IMG/VR virus record: IMGVR_UViG_2562617057_000009
Location: 1 to 50,378 of that record
Length of the DNA stretch: 50,378 bases
Reading direction: 5' to 3' (one strand)
DNA from: a virus
Lineage: Duplodnaviria > Heunggongvirae > Uroviricota > Caudoviricetes
In this document: one piece after another, positions 9,485-21,605 of the stretch
How the letters are laid out: each line of letters begins with the position of its first letter
Position numbering within the stretch: the first letter of the stretch is position 1
Translations under genes and position numbers: made by a program
The notes under the pieces: model-generated
Database searches by the model: none
Told to the model about the DNA's origin: nothing
The model's input: only the letters and a program-made list of their open reading frames with translations

Positions 9485-10309
9485 GTGAAAAACAATATCA
9501 AAGTTTTCGATTTTAAATCAAGCACTGGTGAATTGTTGTCATCAGTTCGTAGTGTGGTCATTGATTCAACACCATGGTTTTTTGCCGTGGATATATGTAA
9601 CGCGCTGGGGCTGACAAATACTGCTATCTCCCTTCAGTCCATCGATGATGAAGATAAAACCGAATATAAGGATTACTTAGGTTCGGGACGTAAGCCTTTG
9701 CTGGTCAATGAATCCGGGCTCTATGCGCTGATTATCAAAAGTCGAAAAAAACAGGCAAGACGTTTTAAACGGTGGATTACATCGGAGGTAATTCCCTCAA
9801 TTCGTAAAACGGGGAATTACTGTCTTACCACAATGGCATCCCTACCAGATTTTAGCGATCCGGCTGCTGCTGCCCGTGCCTGGGCGGACGAATATGAGGC
9901 TAAAAACAGAGCAATTAGTTACGTTCATCGTCAGGCCCAATACATCGAACATCTGGAAAATTTATTCCAGCCTGGCATGACACCGGTTCAGTTCTGCAAG
10001 CAACTTAATGGAGTAAATGTTCAGCGCATCACAGCATTTCTGGAGGCTCACAACTGGCTTTATGACGAGCGTCCTGAATCGCGAAGCCCCGCATGGCGTG
10101 TAAAGGCATATGCCCGAGATCTGTATCTGACCGAACGTCACCACTATATCGATTCAGGTTATGAAGAAGGGTTTTATTCGTACACACCAGTTCTTCTCCA
10201 GAAAGGGGCGGTCTGGATTTATCGCCAGTATCTTAGAGGTGCATTACCCATGAAGAGAAACTGGAATGGCGAATTTACTCACGATAAAGAACTGGCGGGT
10301 GCTGCATGA
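9485..10309 (+). CDS. Bro-N / KilAC-type antirepressor
   Basis: Bro-N-like N-terminus (WFFAVDICNALGLTN) and antirepressor-like C-terminal half; GTG start after GGAGA. Confidence 0.7.
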   Translation: MKNNIKVFDFKSSTGELLSSVRSVVIDSTPWFFAVDICNALGLTNTAISLQSIDDEDKTEYKDYLGSGRKPLLVNESGLYALIIKSRKKQARRFKRWITSEVIPSIRKTGNYCLTTMASLPDFSDPAAAARAWADEYEAKNRAISYVHRQAQYIEHLENLFQPGMTPVQFCKQLNGVNVQRITAFLEAHNWLYDERPESRSPAWRVKAYARDLYLTERHHYIDSGYEEGFYSYTPVLLQKGAVWIYRQYLRGALPMKRNWNGEFTHDKELAGAA

Positions 10310-10965
10310 TTGTTCTCCAAGATATTGATTCTGCAATTTCGGGACGTTACACTGTCTCTGCCCCTTATAAAGCGGGGGCCGGGATTGGAACCCCGGAATT
10401 GATCGAGGCGATATACGACGCGCCAGCGTCTTTTTTATCGTCCGCGCTCACGCACGCCAGAATTATGGTGGGCTGGGCAGGGGAGCCGAAAGGCTCGCCG
10501 GTTTCCTTGATCGCCGGTAGTTCCAACCCTGTTCAGTCCGCCACCAGCGAGCTTGGAACCTCCGGTGGTGGAAGTTTTTCACCGATCAAGGAGGCTGCCA
10601 TCATGGCTACGATCCCAGTTTCCCCATTCCTCAAAATCGAAGTCGTCAACGGCAAGGCCGTTATTTTCTCTTTGCATGTAGCCTGCCATTTCAAGCGCAT
10701 GCACCAGAACATCGTCGACAAAATCGAGTATCTGAACTGCTCGCGCGAATTTTTTACCCGCAATTTCATACCGGGTACTTACCACATCTATGACGACTCT
10801 CTGCGTGGTTATTACATCACCCTTGATGGTCTGATGCTGCTTCAGCTTGGGTTAAGTCTGCGCACAATGCGGTACTACGAGAGTTGCATTGAAGCGTTCC
10901 ATGAGGCTGAAACCGTCCAGGTGCATTCCGCTTTCCGTCGTCATCAACGGGAGGTGCACCTATGA
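10306..10965 (+). CDS. module 1: Rha-like domain protein; the 5' ~300 nt of the ORF is a structured leader (alternative start ATG 10603 after AAGGAGG gives a 120-aa protein)
   Basis: C-terminal 120 aa are Rha-like; ORF start overlaps the upstream stop (ATGA). Confidence 0.55.
   Translation: MIVLQDIDSAISGRYTVSAPYKAGAGIGTPELIEAIYDAPASFLSSALTHARIMVGWAGEPKGSPVSLIAGSSNPVQSATSELGTSGGGSFSPIKEAAIMATIPVSPFLKIEVVNGKAVIFSLHVACHFKRMHQNIVDKIEYLNCSREFFTRNFIPGTYHIYDDSLRGYYITLDGLMLLQLGLSLRTMRYYESCIEAFHEAETVQVHSAFRRHQREVHL
10356..10602 (+). ncRNA. candidate c4/ImmI-like antisense regulatory element, copy 1
   Basis: Hairpin gcccc/ggggc (10360-10379), hairpin plus U-tract 10417-10436, GAAA-tetraloop hairpin 10480-10499, loop CCTTGATCG complementary to the SD region CGATCAAGG (10583-10591), GTTCCAA complementary to TTGGAAC at 10385 and 10553. 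Confidence 0.5.
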
Positions 10966-11621
10966 TCCGCTACCTGAATATTGATTCTGCAATTTCGGGA
11001 CGTTACACTGTCTCCGCACCTTATAAAGCGGGTGCCGGGATTTGCACCCCGGAATTGTCAACGGCGATATACGACGCGCCAGCGTCTTTTTTATCGTCCG
11101 CGCTCACGCACGCCAGAATTATGGTGGGCTGGGCAGGGGAGCCGAAAGGCTCGCCGGTCTCCGTTGACGCCGGTAGTGCAAACCCTGTTCAGTCCGCCAC
11201 CAGCGAGATTTGCACCTCCGGTGGTGGAAGTTTTCCACAGTCAACGGAGGCTGCCATCATGGCTACAGTCCCAACCCACTCATTCCTCAAAATTGAGACC
11301 GTCAACGGCAAGGCCGTTATTTTCTCTTTGCATGTGGCCTGCCACTTTAAGCGCATGCACCAGAACATCGTCGACAAAATCGAGTATCTGAACTGCTCGC
11401 GCGAATTTTTTACCCGCAATTTCATACCGGGTACTTACCACATCTATGACGACTCTCTGCGTGGTTATTACATCACCCTTGATGGTCTGATGCTGCTTCA
11501 GCTTGGGTTAAGTCTGCGCACAATGCGGTACTACGAGAGTTGCATTGAAGCGTTCCATGAGGCTGAAACCGTCCAGGTGCATTCCGCTTTCCGTCGTCAT
11601 CAACGGGAGGTGCACCTATGA
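10962..11621 (+). CDS. module 2: Rha-like domain protein (alternative start ATG 11259)
   Basis: Paralog of module 1; GGGAGGTG precedes the ATG, which overlaps the upstream stop. Confidence 0.55.
   Translation: MIRYLNIDSAISGRYTVSAPYKAGAGICTPELSTAIYDAPASFLSSALTHARIMVGWAGEPKGSPVSVDAGSANPVQSATSEICTSGGGSFPQSTEAAIMATVPTHSFLKIETVNGKAVIFSLHVACHFKRMHQNIVDKIEYLNCSREFFTRNFIPGTYHIYDDSLRGYYITLDGLMLLQLGLSLRTMRYYESCIEAFHEAETVQVHSAFRRHQREVHL
11012..11258 (+). ncRNA. candidate c4/ImmI-like antisense regulatory element, copy 2 (different specificity)
   Basis: Same architecture with compensatory changes: gcacc/ggtgc, TTTGCAC/GTGCAAA, CCGTTGACG versus GTCAACGG at the SD. Confidence 0.5.
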
Positions 11622-12478
11622 TCCGCTACCTGAATATTGATTCTGCAATTCCGGGACGTTACACTGTCTCTGCACCTTATAAAGCGGGTGCCGGGATTGG
11701 CGTCCTGAAATTCAATATAGAGCATAACCGCGCTCATGCGGTTTTTTCGTGTCATGAGCATTGCTACGCCCAAATTATGGTGGGGCGTGCAGGGGCATCG
11801 CAAGATGCGCCGGGTTCTATGTTGACCGGTTACGCCAACCCTGTACGTCTCACCACCTCTGTGATTGGCGTCCCATGTGGTGAGTTCTTTGAATTCAACA
11901 TAGGGGCTGTCACCATGACTACTCTCCCAACCCTCTCTCAACCTGAAATTGCCATCGTTGATGGTCAGGCTGTTACTTCATCCCTGGCTGTTGCCAACTT
12001 CTTCTCTAAACGTCATGACGATGTTCTGAAAAAGATCCGCATTTTGGATTGTTCTCCAGAGTTTTGTGCCCGCAATTTTGCGGAGACATCAATTTTGGTA
12101 CGCCAGCCCAACGGCGGTACTCGCAAACTTCCCTGCTACCAAATCACCCGCGACGGCTTCGCCTTCCTTGCTATGGGCTTCACTGGTAAACGTGCCGCCC
12201 GGTTCAAAGAGGCATACATCAATGCCTTTAACCAGATGGAGAGGAGCTTATCAGGAGCTGGTGCGGCTGACATGTCATCTGTCGCACAAAACGCCAGAGG
12301 CGTATACCTGCATTTGCGTGAAATCCATCAAATCTGGACAAGCCAGCTTTACCCAATGCTTAAGGCCGTTGAATCTCCGCTGGCTGGCAAACTGTACGAC
12401 CGTGTAGGTGATGCTGTTTTTGGTGCTGCACTTGTTGATTCCAGGCTGAATGGTTCTGACAAGGAGGTGCGCCCATGA
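11618..12478 (+). CDS. module 3: full Rha-family regulatory protein (alternative start ATG 11915)
   Basis: Rha-like motif (VTSSLAVANFFSKRHDDVLKKIR); diverged leader of the same design. Confidence 0.6.
   Translation: MIRYLNIDSAIPGRYTVSAPYKAGAGIGVLKFNIEHNRAHAVFSCHEHCYAQIMVGRAGASQDAPGSMLTGYANPVRLTTSVIGVPCGEFFEFNIGAVTMTTLPTLSQPEIAIVDGQAVTSSLAVANFFSKRHDDVLKKIRILDCSPEFCARNFAETSILVRQPNGGTRKLPCYQITRDGFAFLAMGFTGKRAARFKEAYINAFNQMERSLSGAGAADMSSVAQNARGVYLHLREIHQIWTSQLYPMLKAVESPLAGKLYDRVGDAVFGAALVDSRLNGSDKEVRP
11667..11914 (+). ncRNA. candidate c4/ImmI-like antisense regulatory element, copy 3 (third specificity)
   Basis: Terminator-like hairpin aaccgc/gcggtt plus U-run at 11726-11749, GCAA-tetraloop hairpin, TTGGCGT/ACGCCAA pairing, loop CTATGTTGA complementary to TCAACATAG next to the SD. 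Confidence 0.45.
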
Positions 12479-16225: not shown

Positions 16226-16429
16226 TTGATGAGCGTCAAAATTCAAACGATACCGGAACTGCTTATCCAGACACGAGGTAATATGACCGAAGTTTCACGA
16301 ATGCTGAACTGTAATCGCGCCACGGTAAGAAAATATGCTGAAGATAAAGAGGGCAAAGGGCACGCCATTGTTGATGGTGTTCTGATTGTTCATCGTGGAT
16401 GGGACAGGGGTAAAGACAGTGATGCGTGA
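16226..16429 (+). CDS. ninH: NinH-like protein
   Basis: Pattern TIPELL...[34 protein letters not shown] matches lambda NinH as recalled. Confidence 0.65.
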
Positions 16430-16802
16430 TATTCAGCAGGTTCTTGAGCGCTGGGGCGCGTGGGTGGCTAATAATCATGAGGATGTGACCTGGTCGTCCA
16501 TTGCTGCCGGTTTTAAGGGATTAATCCCTTCAAAAGTAAAATCCCGCCCGCAATGCTGTGACGATGACGCGATGGTTATATGTGGGTGTATGGCCCGCCT
16601 TAACCGGAACAACAACGATCTACATGACTTGCTGGTTGACTACTACGTGTTTGGGATGACATTCATGACGCTGGCGCGGAAGCATGGATGCTCAGATGGT
16701 TATATAGGAAAGAAGCTACAAAAAGCCGAGGGGGTGGTGGAAGGAATGTTGATGATGTTGGGTGTCCGGTTAGAAATGGACAAATATATTGAACATCCCT
16801 GA
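16422..16802 (+). CDS. Q: late-gene antiterminator Q (933W/phage-21 type)
   Basis: [23 protein letters not shown]-terminus matches the recalled Stx-phage Q family; position before tRNAs and lysis genes. Confidence 0.7.
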
Positions 16803-17001: not shown

Positions 17002-17078
17002 GGCCCTTTAGCTCAGTTGGTCAGAGCGAGCGACTCATAATCGCCAGGTCGCTGGTTCAAGTCCAGCAAGGGCCACCA
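17002..17078 (+). tRNA. ileZ: tRNA-Ile2-like (anticodon CAU, ileX/ileZ type)
   Basis: Cloverleaf with anticodon loop CTCATAA and 3' CCA; close to E. coli ileX as recalled. Confidence 0.75.
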
Positions 17079-17079
17079 A

Positions 17080-17156
17080 CCACCACTAGCTCATCCGGAT
17101 AGAGCATCAACCTTCTAAGTTGACGGTGCGAGGTTCGAGTCCTCGGTGGTGGGCCA
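17080..17156 (+). tRNA. argN: tRNA-Arg (anticodon UCU)
   Basis: Perfect 7-bp acceptor stem ccaccac/gtggtgg, anticodon loop CTTCTAA, CCA end. Confidence 0.75.
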
Positions 17157-17158
17157 GC

Positions 17159-17234
<76 letters not shown>

Positions 17235-17237
17235 TAT

Positions 17238-17312
<75 letters not shown>

Positions 17313-17604: not shown

Positions 17605-17802
17605 ATGAAATCCATGGACAAAATTTCAACGGGCATTGCCTACGGCACCTCCGCCGGCAGTGCCGGCTACTGGTTTTTGCAGTGGTTGGATCAGGTCAGT
17701 CCATCACAGTGGGCTGCGATTGGTGTGCTGGGAAGTCTGCTTCTGGGGCTTCTGACTTATCTGACGAATCTGTATTTCAAAATTAAGAGAAGACAAGCGT
17801 AA
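17605..17802 (+). CDS. S: pinholin (phage 21 S21-type) with dual-start motif MKSM
   Basis: N-terminus [44 protein letters not shown] matches recalled S21; two transmembrane segments. Confidence 0.8.
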
Positions 17803-17824
17803 GGCTGCACGGGGAGAGTAAATA

Positions 17825-18454
17825 ATGAAGCATGAAGAAATGAATCAGCGATTCAATCACCTGGAAAATGAAATCACTGAGCTTAATAAAAAATTGTCGG
17901 CGTTGGTGAGTTCTGAAGATGAAAACAAACGCCGCGATGAGCATTATGCGGCGATTTACGATTACTGCCACAAAGTCGCTCACGAGACTTTTATGAAGTT
18001 TTTGCAGGAAAAGTTTTTACCGGCCGCATTGTCAGAAAAAGAGGCGGCTTACCTGCGGCCTGAGTACGTCATTACGGTTAACAGTGCCGGAGAGGAAGAG
18101 CATAAAAGTGATTTTATTGCGTCTGCACCGGATAAAGACCAGGAACCCCGTCGGCCTTTCAGGGTTTCCTGTGAAGAGGGTGAGTTCGTCGTTTATGAGA
18201 ACGGAAAACCTGTCCGGGCATCGCATCATCACTGCCTGAAAATTATTAATCTCGCTATCAGATGCCTGAAAGACGAAAACACCAGAGTTATGAAACGCAT
18301 TGGCCGTTGCATGGGGTATTTGCAGGTGGCGGCAGAGATTGAAGCACTTGCCAGTGGTGCAGACATGGATGCTGCGGTGCGGGAGGCTCTTCTTCGTGAT
18401 TTCAATACTCCCCCTTTAAGAAAGAGCCTGATGACTGGATCCAGCCGGGGCTGA
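17825..18454 (+). CDS. hypothetical 209-aa protein inserted between holin and endolysin
   Basis: Acidic, coiled-coil-like N-terminus; no lysis-protein features. Confidence 0.55.
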   Translation: MKHEEMNQRFNHLENEITELNKKLSALVSSEDENKRRDEHYAAIYDYCHKVAHETFMKFLQEKFLPAALSEKEAAYLRPEYVITVNSAGEEEHKSDFIASAPDKDQEPRRPFRVSCEEGEFVVYENGKPVRASHHHCLKIINLAIRCLKDENTRVMKRIGRCMGYLQVAAEIEALASGADMDAAVREALLRDFNTPPLRKSLMTGSSRG

Positions 18455-18519
18455 CTTATCTTAAAAGGCGTATATAAGTTGGCTCGTTATTTGTTGCCGA
18501 TAAATCCTGATAAATATCC

Positions 18520-19053
18520 ATGAGCGCAAAAATCAAATACGGCCTGTCGGCTGCTGTTCTGGCGCTGATTGCCGCAGGCGCGTCTGCTCCCCAGATACTT
18601 GACCAGTTTCTGAACGAAAAAGAGGGTAATCACACAACGGCATACCGTGATGGTTCTGGCATATGGACCATCTGTCGTGGTGCCACAATGGTGGATGGTA
18701 AGCCTGTCATACCGGGAATGAAGCTGTCGAAGGAAAAATGTGACCAGGTTAACGCTATTGAACGTGATAAGGCGCTGGCATGGGTGGAGCGCAATATTAA
18801 AGTACCTCTGACCGAACCACAGAAAGCGGGTATAGCGTCATTTTGTCCCTATAACATTGGCCCCGGTAAGTGTTTTCCGTCGACGTTTTATAAGCGGCTG
18901 AATGCTGGTGATCGTAAAGGTGCATGCGAGGCGATTCGCTGGTGGATAAAAGATGTTGGGCGCGATTGCCGCATACGTTCAAATAACTGCTATGGACAGG
19001 TTATTCGTCGTGACCAGGAAAGCGCATTAGCCTGTTGGGGGATAGATCAATGA
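18520..19053 (+). CDS. R: SAR endolysin (T4-type lysozyme with N-terminal signal-arrest-release domain)
   Basis: Gly/Ala-rich N-terminal membrane segment followed by catalytic E-x8-D-x5-T ([16 protein letters not shown]). Confidence 0.85.
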
Positions 19054-19517
19054 GCAGAGTCACCGCGATTATCTCCGCTCTGGTTATCTGCATCATCGTC
19101 TGCCTGTCATGGGCTGTTAATCATTACCGTGATAACGCCATTACCTACAAAGAGCAGCGCGACAAAAACGCAAGAGAACTGAAGCTGGCGAACGCAACCA
19201 TTACTGACATGCAGCAGCGCCAGCGTTCTGCTGATGCACTCGATGCTAAATACACGAAGGAGTTAGCTGATGCGAAAGCTGAAAATGATGCTCTTCGGCG
19301 CAAGCTTGATAATGGTGGTCGGGTGCTCGTCAAAGGAAAATGCCCTGTGCCATCCTCAGCCGAAACCTCCAGCGCCTCCGGCATGGGCAATGATGCCAGC
19401 GTCGAACTCTCTCCAGTTGCTGGACGAAACGTTCTCGGTATCAGAGACGGAATCATCAGAGACCAGACAGCACTGAGAACGCTTCAGGAATACATCAGAA
19501 CGCAGTGTCTGAATTAA
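19050..19517 (+). CDS. Rz: Rz-like i-spanin
   Basis: N-terminal transmembrane segment then coiled-coil; immediately after the endolysin. Confidence 0.75.
19270..19476 (+). CDS. Rz1: Rz1-like o-spanin lipoprotein embedded in the +1 frame of Rz
   Basis: Lipobox VVGCSS, proline-rich, wholly inside Rz in another frame. Confidence 0.6.
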
Positions 19518-19657
19518 CGGAGCTGGAATGAATGCTGTTTACCTGTTGCGGAAATAAAGATTGCATATTGCGACAATTTGTTGCATGTTTAAGGTGCGCT
19601 TTTCCAGAGCGTATGCGTACGCACCGCATGAAGTACAACCACAGAGAGGCAACCATA

Positions 19658-19888
19658 ATGGCAACAAGCATCCGTTTAGACGATGATTTCGTCAGTGACG
19701 TAAAGGTTCACGCTGATGCCGCAAGTCGCAGCATACCAAAACAAATTGAGCACTGGGCTAAGATTGGTCGTATAGCTGAAGATAATCCAGATCTGCCATT
19801 CAGTTTTATTAGCGAAGTTCTGCTGTCACAAAGCGAAATCAGACACAACAAGGTAACGCGTTATGTCAGAAGAACAGACAGGTCGTGA
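19658..19888 (+). CDS. type II antitoxin (ParD-like)
   Basis: 76-aa ORF after AGAGAGG; overlaps the start of the downstream RelE/ParE-like gene. Confidence 0.55.
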   Translation: MATSIRLDDDFVSDVKVHADAASRSIPKQIEHWAKIGRIAEDNPDLPFSFISEVLLSQSEIRHNKVTRYVRRTDRS

Positions 19889-20192
19889 AATTGATGTTTA
19901 TCAGAGTCGGCGTTTCGAAAAGTCTCTGAGTAAACTCCCGGAAGCGCAACTGAAAGTTGTGGAAGATGAGATCGACAGAATAATTGACAATCCTCTGTTG
20001 GGAACGCAAAAGAAAGGAGACCTCAGTTTTCTTCGTGTGCATAAATTTCAGCTGAATAATCAACAGGTGCTTCTGGGTTACAGCTGGCTTGACGATAAAC
20101 TTGAGCTCTACCTCCTTAGCATCGGTCCACATGAAAATTTTTATACCGATCAGAAAAAACACCGAAAAGCTGATTTAAAACTCATCGGTTAG
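19863..20192 (+). CDS. RelE/ParE-family toxin
   Basis: 109-aa basic protein in a two-gene overlapping arrangement typical of type II TA pairs. Confidence 0.55.
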   Translation: MSEEQTGREIDVYQSRRFEKSLSKLPEAQLKVVEDEIDRIIDNPLLGTQKKGDLSFLRVHKFQLNNQQVLLGYSWLDDKLELYLLSIGPHENFYTDQKKHRKADLKLIG

Positions 20193-20211: not shown

Positions 20212-20237
20212 AGCCCACGTAAACGCGTGGGCTTTTT
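20212..20237 (+). terminator. intrinsic terminator after the TA pair
   Basis: 8-bp stem agcccacg/cgtgggct followed by TTTTT. Confidence 0.65.
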
Positions 20238-20448: not shown

Positions 20449-21267
20449 TTAAGCAGCCATCTGATGATATTTTTCCCTGAAGGCTGCCGGGGAGATATTC
20501 CCCAGACGAGAGTGACGACGCTGACGATTGTAGAAAATCTCAATGTATTCCCGTATTACTGAGATGGCTTCATCCCGGTTATTAAAACGATAGTGGCTCA
20601 GGCTCTCATTTTTCAGCGTTCCCCAGAAGCTTTCCATCGGAGCGTTGTCGTAACAGTTACCTTTACGCGACATTGATGTTTTCAGACCAAACTGCTCCTG
20701 TATGACCCGGTAATCGTATGCGCAGTACTGTGAACCTCGATCAGAGTGGTGGATTAGCCCGGCAGGTGGGCGCTGGCTCCTGAGCGCCATAAACAGGGCT
20801 TTACCTGTCAGCTCTTTTGTCATGCGCTCTCCCATGGCGTAGCCGACAATTTCGCACGTATAAACATCTTTGATGCCAGCGAGGTACAACCATCCCTCCT
20901 GTGTGGCAACATACGTCAGGTCCGCCACCCAGACCTGATTTGGTGCTGTAGGAGCGAACGTCTGGTTCAGCAGATTTGGCGCAACTGGCAGATTGTGGTT
21001 CGAGTTCGTAGTCGCTCTGAACTTGCGTTTCTGCTTACAGCGTAGCCTTAGCTCCTTACGAAGACGTGCCAGTCGGTCACGACCAACGATGATGCCATTC
21101 TCTGCCAGCTCCGTCTGGAGCCGCCGGGTTCCATATGTTTCGCGAGTGCGGATATGTGCCACCTTAATCTCCAGTTTTAGCCGCTCATCACTTTGTTTTC
21201 TGTCTGAGGGTTCATGCTGTACCCAGTTGTAATAACCGCTCCTGGATACACCAAATACCTGACACAT
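20449..21267 (-). CDS. IS3-family transposase OrfB (DDE catalytic domain)
   Basis: DDE-type integrase-core motifs; located after orfA with overlap expected for frameshifted OrfAB. Confidence 0.75.
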   Translation of the reverse strand: MCQVFGVSRSGYYNWVQHEPSDRKQSDERLKLEIKVAHIRTRETYGTRRLQTELAENGIIVGRDRLARLRKELRLRCKQKRKFRATTNSNHNLPVAPNLLNQTFAPTAPNQVWVADLTYVATQEGWLYLAGIKDVYTCEIVGYAMGERMTKELTGKALFMALRSQRPPAGLIHHSDRGSQYCAYDYRVIQEQFGLKTSMSRKGNCYDNAPMESFWGTLKNESLSHYRFNNRDEAISVIREYIEIFYNRQRRHSRLGNISPAAFREKYHQMAA

Positions 21268-21302
21268 CGCTTCAATGGGAAATTGTTGTCGCCATTGTTC
21301 GA

Positions 21303-21605
21303 TTAACGCGTATTTTTCAGCGACTCCTGTGCAAAATACGCTGTTGCTTTTTTTAATATATCTCGCTCAAGGCGAGCTTCATTTAACGCCTTACGCAGTT
21401 GCAGAATTTCAGATTCCAGTTCAGCCACCGTGCGGGAACCAGGAGTACCGAGCCCTTTTCTGGCGGCGGTAACCCATTGTCCTAAAGTGCCTTCAGGAAG
21501 GGATAATCGGGAAGCGCCTTCACTGATCGAAAGTTGATTTTCAAGAACCGTTCTGACAGCTTCGGCTTTGAACTCTTTAGAGTAACGTTGGGTTTTTCTG
21601 CTCAT
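21303..21605 (-). CDS. IS3-family transposase OrfA
   Basis: 100-aa HTH protein typical of IS3-family OrfA. Confidence 0.75.
   Translation of the reverse strand: MSRKTQRYSKEFKAEAVRTVLENQLSISEGASRLSLPEGTLGQWVTAARKGLGTPGSRTVAELESEILQLRKALNEARLERDILKKATAYFAQESLKNTR

Follow-up and report, generated by a model that had tools for sequence, protein, structure and literature searches.

The stretch of DNA examined here, hereafter the window, covers positions 1 to 50,378 (its whole length of 50,378 nucleotides) of the Caudoviricetes virus record IMGVR_UViG_2562617057_000009 in IMG/VR. Its plus strand carries, at 17825..18454, an open reading frame (ORF) of 209 amino acids (aa) with an ATG start, flanked by a gene for an S21-type pinholin (S) and a gene for a signal-anchor-release (SAR)-type lysozyme (R). 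The gene is already known: it is a catalogued, recurrent accessory gene rather than an unusual insertion, and the copy in the window is a frameshifted short form. An earlier reading of the letters without database searches (the sequence-only reading) had placed the gene between S and R, and the ORF calls and the Pfam-matched neighbors bear this out. The features of the locus are listed below, each with the evidence behind it.

16386..16802, plus strand: gene of a Q-family antiterminator, start of the late operon (ORF; annotation of the 99.9%-identical region of Escherichia coli CFSAN029787)
17002..17312, plus strand: four tRNA genes between Q and S, with CAT, TCT, TGT and TCC anticodons (ARAGORN, Rfam, annotation of the relative)
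17605..17802, plus strand: S21-type class II holin (pinholin), 65 aa (PF04971 Phage_holin_2_1, E 2e-33)
17811..17818, plus strand: GGGGAGAG, the Shine-Dalgarno sequence for the 209-aa ORF, within the ancestral last codons of S (sequence)
17819-17821, plus strand: ancestral S stop TAA, 3 nucleotides (nt) ahead of the ATG (alignment with relatives)
17825..18454, plus strand: 209-aa ORF, short-form PHROG 1085 protein (hidden Markov model (HMM) match, alignments, AlphaFold2 (AF2))
18410..18418, plus strand: frameshift site, a C5 run after the loss of one base (DNA alignment; relatives have CCGCCC or CCACCC)
18412..18477, plus strand: remnant of the ancestral tail, FKKEPDDWIQPGLTYLKRRI and a stop, in the -1 frame relative to the ORF (DNA alignment, repair by insertion)
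18520..19053, plus strand: SAR-type phage lysozyme R (PF00959, E 5e-24; PHROG 7 endolysin; hydrophobic Gly/Ala-rich N-terminus)
19050..19517, plus strand: Rz i-spanin (PF03245, E 3e-30; PHROG 13)
19270..19476, plus strand: Rz1 o-spanin ORF, a lipoprotein gene embedded in Rz (VVGC lipobox)

The TAA at 17819-17821 is also in frame with the 209-aa ORF, so that no start upstream of 17825 is possible. The first tRNA gene (CAT) is called tRNA-Met by ARAGORN and tRNA-Ile in the annotation of CFSAN029787.

The gene and its slot in the lysis cassette

The 209-aa ORF is under purifying selection at the protein level and is a genuine coding gene. It is not a chance ORF, because it has 132 homologues at E<=1e-3 in a search of 5.8 billion proteins, and because codon-level comparison with five homologous genes gives pairwise ratios of nonsynonymous to synonymous substitution (dN/dS) of 0.28-0.45 at dS 0.2-1.5. 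A profile search with the family extended the count to 497 homologues, and the GC content of the ORF, overall and at third codon positions (GC3), is similar to that of the adjoining lysis genes. The sequence-only reading had described the gene as unrecognised, a description that the catalogues contradict: the protein matches the PHROG 1085 HMM (E 3.9e-74, 250.7 bits), with residues 1-209 falling on profile positions 117-288 of 296, and it is identical to RefSeq WP_001300760.1. That entry is the ‘hypothetical protein’ of an E. coli CFSAN029787 prophage, whose S-to-R stretch is 99.9% identical to that of the window, and close relatives carry the annotation ‘YdfR family / DUF1327 domain-containing protein’. 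Moreover, the exact 209-aa sequence is found on 379 contigs of a public collection, with E. coli O28ac and Shigella flexneri as named sources.

The interruption of the cassette is likewise nothing out of the ordinary. Phage-21-type cassettes had been expected to run S-R-Rz without interruption as a rule, an expectation that did not survive a survey of the 80 IMG/VR contigs with the holin closest to that of the window, on which S, R and the candidate modules were placed by tblastn. In this sample, which is biased toward close relatives of the window holin and from which the 73 contigs with R on the locus were counted, a DUF1327-type gene lies between S and R in 47 of 73 S21-type cassettes (64%), and S directly adjoins R in 26 (36%). 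The commonest occupant of the slot is the unrelated DUF1327 domain alone. Annotated examples of filled slots are found in phage mEp460 (holin, YdfR family protein, lysozyme), Stx2-converting phage 86 (gp05), Stx2_12E129 and PhiR12_2.

A second survey, in which loci were retrieved through the conserved C-terminal domain (C-domain) of the window protein, comprised 83 loci (80 IMG/VR contigs and 3 species-representative genomes). At every locus with visible flanks, S lies upstream and R downstream. The architecture of the window, with S followed by a coiled coil plus C-domain and then by R, recurs in 43 of the 83, while DUF1327 is also present in 38; the short form is thus a frequent and established variant, not an isolated case. 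In E. coli the gene nearly always has its place right behind the S21-type holin and ahead of R. Homologues in Salmonella are placed differently, not at the S-R junction but between Q/HicAB and the holin, and one of them adjoins a holin of a different family, PF16080. This variable placement shows that the gene goes with the late operon and is tied neither to the S-R junction nor to one holin. Given these homologues placed elsewhere and the 26 cassettes with an empty slot, the gene is most likely accessory and not a core component of lysis. The sequence-only reading had named conserved membership of the cassette family, with a known role, as what would speak against its view of the gene; conserved membership was found, a known role was not.

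The expression of the gene can be approached through the signals around it. Because it lies on the same strand as its neighbors, with terminator-like sites absent from S up to 20212 and without a convincing promoter of its own (a crude consensus scan of the window gave no plus-strand promoter-like site beside it), co-expression with S-R-Rz from a Q-dependent late transcript is a reasonable inference. The earlier proposal of late co-expression from PR' is in keeping with this. The product would then most likely appear in lytic growth alone, from the late transcript that Q antiterminates. Directly 3' of Rz, at 19532-20192, lies a ParD-like / RelE-ParE-family toxin-antitoxin pair, named from the near-identical CFSAN029787 prophage, with the region's first convincing intrinsic terminator behind it, at 20212-20233. 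Translation of the 209-aa gene appears to be coupled to that of S, as its start lies 3 nt past the ancestral S stop and its Shine-Dalgarno sequence within the end of S. In alignments of relatives, the spacing of 3-4 nt between S stop and start codon is kept, whichever module begins the slot gene.

These signals also bear on the idea that the gene is a moron benefiting the lysogen or an anti-phage defence gene, which would exclude superinfecting phages or alter host physiology, possibly together with a convergent small ORF. Cargo does cluster at lambdoid lysis cassettes, as with the ParD/RelE-family pair after Rz here and HicAB before the Salmonella homologue. Furthermore, the convergent ORF of ~105 aa has been conserved in both Stx2-86 and Salmonella (46% identity between the two, E 2e-34), despite the different late-operon positions of the pair. 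We nevertheless consider this idea quite improbable. PADLOC-DB 2.0 returned 0 defence families at E<=1 for the window protein and for a 333-aa long form of it (P0004); the consensus scans, which are crude, found neither the upstream promoter nor the downstream terminator of a moron flanking the gene; and the tight coupling to S favors late lytic expression. Neither the window nor 76 of 82 E. coli loci have the convergent partner, on which ground an obligatory two-gene module with it was rejected. In some relatives an ORF of this kind, ~86-118 aa long and belonging to PHROG 1853 or 2572, follows the homologue on the minus strand (L002 2993-3307, L011 4807-5124, L008 2311-2667).

Modules and the frameshifted tail

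Alignment resolves the family into three modules: an N-terminal DUF1327/YdfR domain (PF07041), a variable linker that often contains a coiled coil of ~60 residues, and the C-domain of ~105 residues. Long forms of 260-333 aa possess all three modules, K-12-type YdfR and mEp460 gp55 possess the first only, and the window protein possesses the second and third. Its residues 1-64 form a helical hairpin or coiled coil, residues 65-108 a variable linker that is probably disordered, and residues 109-197 the conserved C-domain. The long form P0004, for example, shares 82% identity with the window protein across 94% of the query and matches PF07041 at 7e-35. In the window protein itself PF07041/DUF1327 gives no match at E<=1, and alignment to P0004 shows that it starts after this domain of ~90 residues. 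The C-domain is typified by H136 and by the motifs GRCMGxLQxAAEIEA and DFDNPPFKxxPxxWxxPGxxYLKxR, and its core motifs, H136 and GRCMGxLQxAAEIEA (residues 160-174), are present in the window protein.

The taxonomic reach of the family is narrow. An HMMER search of 1.84 billion cluster representatives gave 43 at E<=1e-3, and the named homologues come from Escherichia, Shigella and Salmonella. As the C-domain occurs in only 3 of 185,579 species-representative genomes (Shigella flexneri, E. coli and Escherichia sp.), there are no distant relatives to inform function.

The end of the protein departs from that of the family. DNA alignment with relatives reveals a 1-bp deletion at 18411/18412, in ACTCC[G]CCCTTT, that is common to the window and CFSAN029787 and that swaps the near-invariant tail PPFKxxPxxWxxPGxxYLKxR (P, K, W, P, G, Y, L) for 12 unrelated residues, LRKSLMTGSSRG. 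Insertion of one base restores the family tail, PFKKEPDDWIQPGLTYLKRRI, in a protein of 217 aa that ends at the TAA at 18475-18477. As independent assemblies share the deletion, it is probably genuine and not a homopolymer error. Conservation within the family peaks in the lost tail, even among Salmonella homologues of ~35% identity, and this tail is kept in 70 of the 83 C-domain loci, the remaining 13 all bearing the same frameshift allele. Independent lesions are seen in other relatives, including a frameshifted pseudogene, further pseudogenes and alternative tails in the homologues P0042 and P0074.

The deletion created, as a by-product, the heptamer C CCT TTA at 18412-18418, which fits the pattern X XXY YYZ in the right phase, and the -1 frame from there encodes KKEPDDWIQPGLTYLKRRI and a stop. 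Programmed -1 ribosomal frameshifting at this heptamer could thus restore the full-length protein, as a slip would read straight into the ancestral tail, but we hold this to be very improbable. No stimulatory structure was found downstream (82 nt fold, z = +0.70), slippage without stimulation should be very inefficient, and the site lacks conservation, the heptamer being missing from all intact-frame relatives.

The holin gene, too, has a frameshift. An extra T near 17784 gives AAAATTAAG where four relatives have AAAATAAG (17780-17802), which changes the cytoplasmic tail of the holin to KIKRRQA, leaves it 65 aa instead of 71 aa long and shifts the S stop from 3 nt to 22 nt upstream of the ATG of the 209-aa ORF. 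The insertion-bearing sequence occurs in 0 of 178 retrieved loci and the intact form in 14 near-identical prophages; the extra T is either a private mutation or a sequencing error.

An IS3-family insertion sequence (IS) lies 1 kb downstream, at 20449-21605 on the minus strand, with a 100-aa orfA and a 272-aa orfB of transposase-like sequence. It occupies the place of KilA-N and the terminase-proximal genes in the CFSAN029787 prophage, and the prophage of the window is therefore interrupted or rearranged just past the lysis cassette.

Without DUF1327, with its tail lost, and with an IS element and a frameshifted holin alongside, the 209-aa allele of this prophage is probably impaired or decaying, whether as a hypomorph or as a remnant. 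A stronger version, which overlaps the reading we prefer, holds that the copy is simply dead, a non-functional remnant carried between two selected lysis genes in a decaying prophage. We see this as a substantial possibility, though not the favored one. The frameshifting away of a near-invariant tail speaks for it, as do the other independently frameshifted or truncated copies known among relatives and the lesions of holin and downstream region within the same window. On the other side, 197 of the 209 codons are intact with no internal stop, the C-domain core (residues 109-195) is retained, and the allele is unchanged on all 379 contigs.

Other parts of the window bear features of their own. 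A 656-bp unit stands in three tandem copies at 10306-12478, with 300-nt cores 89% and 66% identical to that of copy one. Each copy has a match to the isrK small RNA (sRNA) and one to the C4 antisense RNA (10360-10548, 11016-11204, 11672-11860), and the repeats fall within three back-to-back ORFs of 219, 219 and 286 aa; the arrangement looks like a triplicated antirepressor-control module of the isrK/C4 type. Additionally, Rfam matches at 30624-30803 and 31560-31763 to CssrB (chromosome-encoded Shigella sRNA B, 230 bits) and IS009 suggest, as the origin of the window, a chromosome of Shigella or of the enteroinvasive E. coli (EIEC) type.

Structure and possible roles

Few clues to function come from known families. 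Scans of the 209-aa protein against Pfam, NCBIfam and PADLOC gave nothing beyond sub-threshold coiled-coil noise, and neither Pfam nor PHROGs gave a match to holin, spanin or endolysin families. Searches of PDB sequences with whole-family and C-domain profiles found only coiled-coil or chance matches (E>=0.05). There was no fold match either. The literature covered, on YdfR, DUF1327 and lysis-cassette genes of Shiga toxin (Stx) phages, held nothing on the function of the protein.

The coiled-coil-like N-terminus that the sequence-only reading had noticed is supported by both AF2 models, with helices at residues 3-27 and 31-64, and by the weak coiled-coil family matches, whereas its description of the protein as acidic needs softening: the protein is mildly so (isoelectric point 6.2; 35 Asp plus Glu against 31 Lys plus Arg), not strongly. 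The better of two AF2 models, that of the intact, 90%-identical homologue P0002 built from 69 sequences, shows the C-domain as a three-stranded beta-meander followed by three or four helices, with moderate confidence (predicted local distance difference test scores, pLDDT, of 72-83). The maximum 19-residue Kyte-Doolittle mean of the 209-aa protein is 0.76 and its grand average of hydropathy (GRAVY) is -0.64, with no transmembrane segment; since it has no hydrophobic segment, it is not a holin, antiholin or spanin.

Within the C-domain, the invariant residues are Gly, Leu, Gln, Pro, Lys and Trp, together with one His (H136). A metal-binding or catalytic site was considered and rejected, as no such residue other than H136 is invariant and Salmonella forms have Ala or Ser in place of C162. 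Because the invariant residues are non-catalytic in kind and the Cys is replaced in some Salmonella forms, the C-domain would seem to be a binding or adaptor module, and neither an enzyme nor part of the membrane lysis machinery.

We put at roughly 60% the probability that this is a late-operon accessory gene of the uncharacterised, YdfR-related PHROG 1085 family, at home in lambdoid prophages of Escherichia, Shigella and Salmonella and present here in an impaired short form. Its product would be cytoplasmic and soluble, built of a helical hairpin or coiled coil at the N-terminus, the variable linker and the C-domain of ~105 residues, and it may act in the cytoplasm as a dimeric adaptor that is dispensable for lysis.

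The one functional lead comes from the frequent fusion of the C-domain to DUF1327/YdfR. YdfR of the Qin prophage binds the catalytic N-terminal half of RNase E, as found by two-hybrid assay and co-purification in a 2026 study (PMC13232886). YdfR also co-purifies with RNA, and the binding to RNase E maps to YdfR residues 1-72 (PMC13232886). By this analogy the process that the family would most plausibly touch is the turnover of host or phage RNA late in infection, a specific step that we offer tentatively and regard as doubtful. The binding cannot be assumed for the window protein, because DUF1327 is absent from it.

A role in lysis itself is a different proposal: the protein would bind the basic tail of the pinholin or the unreleased SAR endolysin and tune depolarisation, as a soluble antiholin-like or pro-holin modulator of lysis timing. 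The E. coli gene does follow S directly at its conserved spacing, the protein is mildly acidic against a basic holin tail, and accessory modulators of holins are known elsewhere, such as ORF52 of Salmonella phage BSPM4 (PMC11657625). This proposal is unlikely, however, given the 36% of closely related cassettes with no slot gene, the Salmonella homologues upstream of the holin (once beside a PF16080 holin), the commonest slot occupant being an unrelated DUF1327 domain alone, and the lack of a membrane segment. A bolder view would make the C-domain, for which there is neither a Pfam model nor a detectable structural relative, a new class of late-phase effector in Stx and other enterobacterial lambdoid phages, working with DUF1327/YdfR on RNase E or late-mRNA stability, or on pinholin timing, with the short form as its free-standing version; the odds are well against this view, too.

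For the window, the accessory-gene reading carries little significance, as the protein is catalogued (WP_001300760.1), its slot is more often filled than not and this copy is damaged. The family as a whole is of modest interest, as an apparently pinholin-coupled gene in many prophages of E. coli, Shigella and Salmonella, including Stx-converting phages. If true, the fusion-based link to RNase E would point to a means by which phages manage RNA decay while late genes are expressed and toxin is released.

Comparison with known systems

The nearest known proteins are those of the YdfR/DUF1327 type, such as Qin ydfR and mEp460 gp55, whose genes fill this slot as well, next to an S21-type holin on the upstream side and followed by the lysozyme. 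Many long ‘YdfR family’ proteins contain the whole window protein as their C-terminal two-thirds, but the DUF1327 domain that defines YdfR is absent from the window protein. Among PHROG 1085 members, Stx2_12E129 BCI98956.1 is 63% identical over the full length and gp05 of Stx2-converting phage 86 is 57% identical over residues 63-201, both likewise encoded between S and R. Measured against the PHROG 1085 profile, the window protein is without the N-terminal domain, and the conserved final tail has been frameshifted away.

Lambdoid morons, such as bor of lambda and stx or nanS-p in Stx phages, are non-essential and variably present genes at late-operon junctions near the lysis genes. Classical morons, which are expressed in the lysogen, bring a promoter and a terminator with them. 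The 209-aa gene resembles morons as probably non-essential, variably present late-operon cargo beside lysis genes, but the autonomous signals of classical morons were not found at it in the crude scans, and its start codon appears instead to be coupled to the S stop.

Accessory proteins of lysis timing offer a further comparison, T4 RI being an antiholin of this kind. As would seem to hold for the 209-aa gene, T4 RI and BSPM4 ORF52 (PMC11657625) are extra, holin-associated genes that are not needed for lysis itself. Their products, however, are membrane-associated or periplasmic and unrelated in sequence, whereas the 209-aa protein is soluble and its homologues occur beside more than one holin family.
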